Shown here one piece after another: positions 1 to 1,086 of a DNA stretch of 64,000 nucleotides. The DNA lies in assembly GCF_003334385.1 (NCBI RefSeq), contig NZ_QOWN01000012.1. One strand, 5' to 3'. The notes under the pieces were generated by a model, which was not told where the DNA came from, searched no databases, and saw only the letters and a list, made by a program, of their open reading frames with translations. Position numbers and translations under genes: made by a program. Every line of letters starts with the position of its first letter. Position 1 is the stretch's first letter. The DNA is from Escherichia coli. Its GTDB lineage: Bacteria > Pseudomonadota > Gammaproteobacteria > Enterobacterales > Enterobacteriaceae.

Positions 1-1086
1 AGCAGGATTTGAACTACTCAGGCAGAGGGTAATGAGTCCACTGGCATGAAAATCTCCACCCAGGTTGCGGAAGAGCCACTTTTCATCCGTCGTTGACAGT
101 TATACCGCCAGTCAGAAATATACCGTCGTCAGGGCGTGGAGCTGAGCCGTGCCACACTGGGTCGCTGGACCGGTGCCGTTGCTGAACTGCTGGAGCCGCT
201 GTATGACGTCCTGCGCCAGTATGTACTGATGCCCGGTAAAGTTCATGCGGATGATATCCCCGTTCCGGTCCAGGAGCCGGGCAGTGGTAAAACAAGAACT
301 GCCCGGCTGTGGGTCTATGTCCGTGATGACCGTAACGCCGGTTCACAGATGCCCCCGGCGGTCTGGTTCGCGTACAGCCCGGACCGGAAAGGTATCCATC
401 CACAGAATCACCTAGCCGGTTACAGCGGTGTGCTTCAGGCAGATGCTTACGGTGGTTACCGGGCGTTATACGAATCCGGCAGAATAACGGAAGCTGCGTG
501 TATGGCCCATGCCCGGAGAAAAATCCACGATGTGCATGCAAGAGTGCCAACCGACATCACCACGGAAGCCCTGCAGCGTATCGGTGAACTGTATACCATC
601 GAGGCAGAAGTCCGGGGATGTTCAGCAGAACAGCGTCTGGCGGCAAGAAAAGCAAGAGCCGCGCCACTGATGCAGTCACTGTATGACCGGATACAGCAAC
701 AGATGAAAACACTGTCGCGTCACTCGGATACGGCAAAAGCGTTCGCATACCTACTGAAACAGTGGAAGGCCCTGAACGTGTACTGCAGTAATGGCTGGGT
801 GGAAATCGACAACAACATCGCTGAAAATGCCTTGCGGGCGGTCAGTCTGGGTCGTAAAAACTTCCTGTTCTTCGGCTCTGACCATGGTGGTGAGCGGGGA
901 GCGCTACTGTACAGCCTGATCGGGACGTGCAAACTGAATGACGTGGATCCAGAAAGCTACCTTCGCCATGTGCTTGGCGTCATAGCAGACTGGCCGGTCA
1001 ACCGGGTCAGCGAACTGCTTCCGTGGCGCATAGCACTGCCAGCTGAATAACACATCCCCGTCAATACGGCCCTCGCTGTACGCTTA
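1..1086 (+). mobile_element. IS66-family insertion sequence, 3' portion with right terminal sequence; continues beyond window start
   Basis: ORF 136..1050 has the IS66 TnpC C-terminal signature ([29 protein letters not shown]); reverse complement of GTAAGCG terminal motif at 1080-1086. Confidence 0.7.
136..1050 (+). pseudogene. IS66-family transposase (TnpC-like) reading frame, probably disrupted: in-frame TGA codons at 10-12 and 97-99 upstream in the same frame
   Basis: Frame 1 translation upstream of 136 reads ...[25 protein letters not shown]... continuous with the ORF; the ORF-track start at 136 is a GTG. Confidence 0.5.

Follow-up and report, generated by a model that had tools for sequence, protein, structure and literature searches.

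A truncated, chimeric IS66-family remnant abutting an ISEc38 fragment beside sigA in Escherichia coli, and its probable origin by inversion

Results

Organization of the locus

The window, by which is meant the whole 64,000-nucleotide stretch of Escherichia coli contig NZ_QOWN01000012.1 that was analysed, starts inside a cluster of insertion sequence (IS) fragments which adjoins sigA at the end of a tRNA-Phe-associated pathogenicity island of the chromosome. Window positions 1-2100 agree at every base with the E. coli EC2 chromosome (NZ_CP058571.1; 100% identity), and 15 further complete genomes match this interval with 99.7-100% identity. The features in and around the cluster are as follows; the names ISCro1, ISEc8 and ISEc38 are those given by the NCBI annotation of the matched copies.

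Left of the window: iuc/iutA, iha and several IS66-family sequences.
1-98, plus strand: 3' terminal 98 bases of a 5'-truncated ISEc38 (ISL3 family), sharing 96-100% identity with the ISEc38 copies of numerous plasmids and genomes.
2-49, plus strand: end of the ISEc38 transposase pseudogene in frame 2, comprising the final 15 codons and the stop codon TGA at 47-49 (PGAP HX136_RS03970; NF033550).
55-98, plus strand: right terminal inverted repeat of ISEc38, about 44 bp, ending in TTGACA (93-98), recognized by direct reading and from intact copies.
99-1087, plus strand: IS66-family remnant comprising the last 989 bp of an element, in which the right terminal repeat is the only one left, delimited by database matches over 99-1087/1088 and by split matches.
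100-1050, plus strand: tnpC pseudogene, open in frame 1, corresponding to residues 208-523 of ISCro1 TnpC (blastp, NF033517, Pfam, PGAP HX136_RS03975).
About 1059-1087: right terminal repeat of the IS66 remnant, bottom strand 5'-GTAAGCGTACAGCGAGGGCCGTATTGA; the same end abuts the same flank in strain 55989.
2081-5938, minus strand: sigA, to the right of the IS cluster.
Beyond sigA, in order: further IS fragments, a large helicase-like gene, an integrase gene (12376-13638), tRNA-Phe (13836-13911), and then the core chromosome.

Both pseudogenes within 1-1087 are already annotated by RefSeq, in which PGAP records HX136_RS03970 as a "transposase, missing N-terminus" ending at position 49 and HX136_RS03975 as an "IS66 family transposase, missing N-terminus" at 100-1050. 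Nothing at the locus is new in kind: its components are IS66-family elements (ISCro1, ISEc8), an ISL3-family element (ISEc38), nested insertions and, on the interpretation developed below, an inversion between inverted IS copies.

The ISEc38 tip and the two TGA codons

Frame 1 of the window carries TGA codons at 10-12 and 94-96 and is open from there to the stop at 1048-1050. The listed open reading frame runs from GTG 136 to 1050 (304 aa), and TnpC-like codons extend for 12 codons 5' of this GTG, to base 100. The earlier note had taken the whole of 1-1086 to be an IS66-family element whose transposase frame ran upstream of the listed start and was interrupted by TGA codons at 10-12 and 97-99. 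Part of this description holds: the first TGA is where it was said to be, the frame does continue upstream as far as base 100, and the proposed right end falls within one base of the end found here, 1087. The remainder does not, since the triplet at 97-99 is CAG and the second TGA lies one codon away, the IS66 DNA starts at 99, and tblastn detects nothing TnpC-like beyond the 12 codons. The coding part of the IS66 DNA (100-1050) is fully open, with neither a stop codon nor a frameshift, so that the in-frame stop codons attributed to the transposase are not in it. Two stops in 33 codons are about as many as chance would place in a frame that is not read (33 x 3/64, or about 1.5).

The DNA that does contain the two TGA codons can be identified from its extension to the left. 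The sequence left of base 99, including the part beyond the window edge, has 98-99% identity to elements bearing the ISEc38 annotation, and the matches to these elements stop at window position 98, give or take a few chance bases. Two intact ISEc38 copies from unrelated contexts have about 1749 bp in common, end in ...GCGGAAGAGCCACTTTTCATCCGTCGTTGACA and then diverge in their flanks, and their terminal ...GTTGACA is the window sequence that ends at base 98. The left and right ends of intact ISEc38 form a 44-nt inverted repeat, 95.5% matched. In the transposase gene end, the 44-bp right repeat and the terminal base, window positions 1-98 thus agree with intact copies, but the fragment, which starts 527 bases left of the window, retains just the last 625 of about 1749 bp (98 of them within the window) and is consequently dead as well. 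Its near-identity to named copies, which extends to the last base of the right repeat, places it in ISEc38 and the ISL3 family, while its transposase gene is incomplete: the C-terminal 194 codons are left, PGAP marks the gene as incomplete, and the ISL3-family transposase model NF033550 scores 107.8 bits against a cutoff of 180, over profile positions 237-368 of 370. ISEc38 is mentioned in 28 papers, of which the 10 listed are all genome surveys of E. coli.

By alignment, then, the TGA at 94-96 belongs to the ISEc38 terminal GTTGACA. That at 10-12 falls within the ISEc38 transposase gene, but out of frame, since this gene uses frame 2. The alignment to intact tnpC that the earlier note had proposed as a check places both codons outside the transposase coding sequence, which is the outcome that it had named as refuting its reading. 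An apparent "frame with stop codons" 5' of an open reading frame may accordingly be the tip of a second insertion sequence instead of a sign of gene decay.

A separate feature of the ISEc38 tip is an outward-reading ATG at 46-48 that overlaps the transposase stop (ATGA). Here it is in frame with the tnpC remnant, with the TGA of the terminal TTGACA as the sole stop between them. An ISEc38 copy in E. coli O145 RM9872 (L008, 1348-1400) has a 4-nt deletion in the repeat and hence lacks this stop, and PGAP begins a 523-aa "ISEc8 family transposase" at that ATG, inside ISEc38; the gene start so placed is probably an annotation artefact or a fusion.

The truncated IS66-family remnant

The boundary at 98|99 is equally sharp when viewed from the IS66 side. 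A plasmid search returned 4,050 records with a match, and the IS66-family matches listed begin at query base 99-106, extend to 1087/1088 and in no case span 1-98. Of 5,426 complete E. coli genomes, 42 match a 121-nt junction probe (window 40-160) over its whole length; among the rows sampled from the others, either ISEc38 copies stop at about 98 or ISCro1 copies begin at about 99. The ISEc38 terminal repeat directly abuts tnpC codon 208. Plasmid CP057208.1 (L003), in which the match starts from window position 99 and the element is cut by ISEc12, was considered as a second instance of the same truncation and rejected: its ISCro1 homology runs 84 nt further upstream, and its match starts at 99 because the window's own IS66 homology begins there.

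What remains of the transposase is well preserved. Residues 1-316 of the fragment align without gaps to residues 208-523 (of 523) of ISCro1 TnpC at 89% identity, and a tblastn search with intact TnpC proteins yields no match before base 100. The NF033517 score of the fragment (transpos_IS66; cutoff 180) is 333.7 bits over profile positions 106-384 of 387, and Pfam detects DDE_Tnp_IS66 (3.9e-91) and DDE_Tnp_IS66_C (1.8e-16). Compared with the Pfam domains of intact ISCro1 TnpC, its content is as follows.

LZ_Tnp_IS66, residues 46-121 of intact TnpC: absent from the fragment.
zf-IS66, residues 128-172: absent from the fragment.
DDE_Tnp_IS66, residues 186-472: model positions 23-283 kept.
DDE_Tnp_IS66_C, residues 479-516: kept.

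A complete IS66-family element has two terminal inverted repeats with GTAAGCG-type tips. The right end is present at 1087 (...GTACGCTTAC, top strand ...CGCTTAC, bottom strand 5'-GTAAGCGTACAG), and the left end has been lost by the cut at 99. The protein is a TnpC-type DDE transposase of the IS66 kind, but a partial one that begins at residue 208, without the LZ_Tnp_IS66 and zf-IS66 domains of the full-length protein. In place of the tnpA and tnpB genes that would lie upstream in the same element there is ISEc38 DNA and then an inverted IS66 remnant. Extension to the left through the EC2 region (L001), which the earlier note had suggested as a way of finding tnpA and tnpB, did not recover those missing from this copy: the order leftward is the ISEc38 fragment, the second, inverted IS66 remnant, and then an unrelated intact IS66-family element. 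The closest tnpA-tnpB-tnpC set is at L001 8426-10842 on the opposite strand, and its TnpC is just 57% identical.

The copy is therefore dead through truncation, being without its left end, tnpA, tnpB and tnpC codons 1-207. That the transposase is an inactive remnant was rightly suspected, but the cause is truncation and not the two TGA codons, which sit in ISEc38 DNA; and to call the copy non-autonomous overrates what is left, since with one terminal repeat its mobilisation as an IS is impossible too. It belongs to the IS66 family solely as a fragment, derived from two members, and is not a complete element, having one end, a partial tnpC and neither tnpA nor tnpB. Beyond annotation, the remnant matters little.

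A chimera of ISCro1 and ISEc8

The two members from which the remnant derives are distinguished by comparing it with each along its length, which divides it into three parts.

99-790, plus strand: ISCro1-derived part, 95.2% identical to ISCro1 and 66.5% to ISEc8, with diagnostic sites of ISCro1 type up to 790.
791-821, plus strand: putative crossover interval, 31 nt (GGCTGGGTGGAAATCGACAACAACATCGC region) identical in ISCro1 and ISEc8, and 100% identical to both.
822-1087, plus strand: ISEc8-derived part including the 3' end of tnpC and the right terminal repeat, 99.6% identical to ISEc8 (RM9872) and 61.3% to ISCro1.

Identity to ISCro1 in 60-nt blocks is 90-98% (mostly at least 93%) to about position 818 and 60-67% thereafter, and the diagnostic sites change type between 790 and 822. 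The 31-nt run that ends at 821 is the longest identical stretch between the parental remnants, and it encodes a conserved segment. The remnant thus resembles ISCro1 (e.g. WP_000381395.1, NZ_CP122834.1) in the 95.2% DNA identity of its first part and in being collinear and gapless with TnpC 208-523, but it has the 3' part only, and from 822 on, where identity is just about 61%, it is not ISCro1. Conversely, it resembles ISEc8 (e.g. WP_000704132.1, E. coli O145 RM9872) from 822 to 1087, including the tnpC stop, the right repeat and the C-terminal part of the protein, but 5' of 791 it is just 66.5% identical; the ISEc8 remnant at this site, to judge from 55989, had been cut at a point about 400 nt from the 3' end by the time of the exchange.

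A first sign of two sequence types came from ISCro1 matches in two pieces, in which 990 bases of the query were spread over about 1390 of the subject. They are explained by an ISCro1 inserted in an ISEc8-type remnant of the matched plasmid.

To compare the copies, 124 sites that tell ISCro1 (type A) from the ISEc8-type remnant (type B) were classified. In strain 55989, one copy is purely A and the other purely B. In EC2, the right copy, which is that of the window, is A to 790 and B from 822, and the left copy, outside the window, is B to 828 and A from 832. These site patterns show the two EC2 copies to be the products of a reciprocal exchange between two inverted remnants. The exact chimera is found only in the 16 EC2-type genomes among the 5,426 complete E. 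coli genomes.

The left copy occupies L001 11040-11473 (about 527-960 bases left of the window). Its inner part is of ISEc8 type, its outer part and right end are of ISCro1 type, and the annotation lists it as an IS66 transposase pseudogene with a frameshift. At L001 11473|11474 it meets the ISEc38 fragment at the latter's truncated 5' edge.

ISEc8-type tnpC 3' remnants with the same right end adjoin three different autotransporter genes: sigA here, AIDA-I in NZ_CP122834.1 (L002, remnant at 4003-4393), and an autotransporter gene in CP057208.1.

Inversion relative to strain 55989

Strain 55989 contains the same three pseudogenes (951, 585 and 401 nt) between the same flanks, in the opposite order and orientation. 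The flanks of EC2 and 55989 are collinear, and the interior 1275 bp is 99.92% identical and inverted. As an independent check, the junction and the sigA flank are on opposite strands in strain FORC_069 and on the same strand in EC2. The sigA tRNA-Phe islands of enteroaggregative E. coli 55989/O104:H4 are otherwise alike in sigA, the downstream hypothetical gene and the IS remnants (98% identical), and differ in that the IS segment is inverted and that O104:H4 strains have an extra ISEc43 in the region.

Homologous recombination between inverted IS copies is a well-known class of bacterial genome rearrangement. The present case has the marks of that class, with inverted homologous remnants flanking a segment that is inverted between strains and with reciprocal chimeric repeats. 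It differs from it in general in that the partners are different IS66 members, about 70% identical, and in that the exchange is confined to one 31-nt stretch and a short conversion tract. An inversion in situ quite probably made the chimera, as the reciprocal site patterns and the collinear flanks suggest.

The direction of the change is a further question. At sites 822, 825 and 828 both EC2 copies are of type B, while type A is retained in one copy of 55989, which is most simply explained if the arrangement of 55989 is ancestral and a crossover with a short conversion tract led to that of EC2. The reverse direction is less simple because three ISCro1-specific bases would need to be recreated without a local template. 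We infer the direction from the 55989 type to the EC2 type, and likewise the order of events, from these three converted sites and from parsimony. The occurrence of the ISEc38/ISCro1 junction in 42 genomes, against that of the exact chimera in 16, indicates that the ISEc38 insertion predates the inversion.

The EC2 arrangement sets the 16 EC2-type genomes apart from the 26 other complete E. coli genomes that have the ISEc38/ISCro1 junction. The opposite orientation is found in at least 55989 and FORC_069, and orientation could be used to mark lineages of tRNA-Phe islands that carry sigA.

Discussion

Proposed history of the cluster

The interpretation that best accounts for these results, to which we assign a probability of about 0.92, is that the start of the window is a nested cluster of IS fragments in which an IS66-family remnant, cut by ISEc38, was made chimeric by an inversion, and in which the upstream TGA codons are ISEc38 sequence. 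An ISCro1-like IS66 element would have been interrupted at tnpC codon 208 by the insertion of ISEc38, after which a rearrangement would have deleted the 5' part of ISEc38, and the IS66 element would have lost its entire 5' half, with the left end, tnpA, tnpB and the first 207 tnpC codons. The resulting ancestor would have resembled 55989, with the ISCro1 remnant inverted relative to an older ISEc8 remnant abutting the sigA flank. Homologous recombination within window positions 791-821, the only identical 31-nt stretch that the two share, would then have inverted about 1.5 kb between the remnants. Here this would have joined ISCro1 codons 208-438, in register, to the 3' end of ISEc8 with its right terminal repeat, and about 0.7-1 kb before the window start it would have left the reciprocal ISEc8/ISCro1 chimera. 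The remnant as it stands cannot transpose, having a single terminal repeat and neither the accessory genes nor the N-terminal DNA-binding region. The locus would thus provide a small documented case in which two different IS66-family remnants recombined within 31 nt and inverted about 1.5 kb.

Alternative explanations

If the tnpC frame had originally reached base 1, the copy could have been killed by two nonsense mutations, and it is true that the TGA codons at 10-12 and 94-96 sit in frame 1, which is the tnpC frame downstream. Upstream of base 99/100, however, neither the DNA nor its translation resembles any IS66-family tnpC; the ISEc38 3' end accounts for bases 1-98 with 96-100% identity; and before TTATAC the independent ISCro1-like fragment of CP057208.1 reads ...GCAGACCATCTGCCG where the window reads ...CATCCGTCGTTGACAG. 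The alignments refute this explanation, and the chance left to it is negligible. A less remote alternative, though still an unlikely one, is that the mosaic is a natural IS66 variant that inserted by sigA, so that the EC2 arrangement would be ancestral and that of 55989 derived, or that the two arose independently. Its main support comes from the same plasmid, which at 3417-4489 carries an ISCro1/ISEc8 mosaic that switches within the same 31-nt interval and is 97.6% identical to the window over 99-1087; this mosaic adjoins another autotransporter gene, is cut by ISEc12 and lacks ISEc38. Either such mosaics arise recurrently at the 31-nt stretch or a mobile mosaic IS66 element exists, and this weakens the claim of an origin in situ. 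Yet the plasmid mosaic departs from the window at the lineage markers (site 753, site 832 and the block 639-698) and by these differences is of a separate lineage. Moreover, EC2 holds the exact reciprocal product, 55989 holds both pure parents with the same lineage-specific variants, and a change from EC2 to 55989 would need three sites to regain their ISCro1 bases although the locus offers no template, all of which argues for the inversion in situ.

The remaining alternatives concern not the origin of the cluster but its activity. The reading frame from GTG 136 to 1050, with its DDE domain and no N-terminal DNA-binding region, could for example be expressed from a hybrid promoter built on the ISEc38 TTGACA, and the truncated transposase could modulate IS66-family transposition. 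Outward -35 hexamers in IS tips are how some insertion sequences create hybrid promoters; the TTGACA at 93-98 is a perfect sigma-70 -35 hexamer that faces outward toward the reading frame, and the 317-codon frame is open without internal damage. Against this, a consensus promoter scan of window 1-1500 found no promoter-like site; the best -10 candidate (AAATAT, 116-121), 17 nt downstream of TTGACA, is weak, matching the consensus at 3 of 6 positions; and no Shine-Dalgarno sequence is evident before GTG 136. The openness of the frame is explained by the youth of the fragment, which is 95-99.6% identical to active elements. A functional product is accordingly very improbable. A terminator scan of window 1-1500 gave one terminator-like site, at chance level.

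A module of about 2 kb has an outward-facing IS66 right end on either side, that of ISCro1 some 960 bases before the window start and that of ISEc8 at 1087. IS66-family insertion leaves an 8-bp target-site duplication flanking the element. The module was considered as a single insertion and rejected as such: the 8 bp outside its two ends, TGCTGCAC and TCATCACC, differ, so the module was not inserted as a unit. That it is not inert, and either expresses a truncated TnpC which interferes with IS66 transposition or moves in trans as a two-ended pseudo-element, would be a very long shot.

Neighbouring genes of the island

Three other stretches of the island were observed in passing. An A+T-rich gene at 1453-2022 (minus strand), directly downstream of sigA, encodes a 189-aa hypothetical protein with a hydrophobic N-terminal segment, for which NCBIfam and PADLOC searches gave zero matches; it is kept together with sigA in 55989. 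On the opposite side of sigA, a second patch of fragments (6299-8267), all annotated as pseudogenes, contains a truncated traF, an internal fragment of an IS66-family transposase, another transposase fragment and an IS3-family fragment. Finally, a 1171-aa gene at 8409-11924 (minus strand), annotated merely as "AAA domain-containing protein", matches PADLOC MkoC over its full length, with 1690 bits and residues 1-1169 aligned to profile positions 1-1135 of 1136, which makes it a candidate single-gene Mokosh type II anti-phage defence system; it adjoins the island integrase gene and tRNA-Phe.
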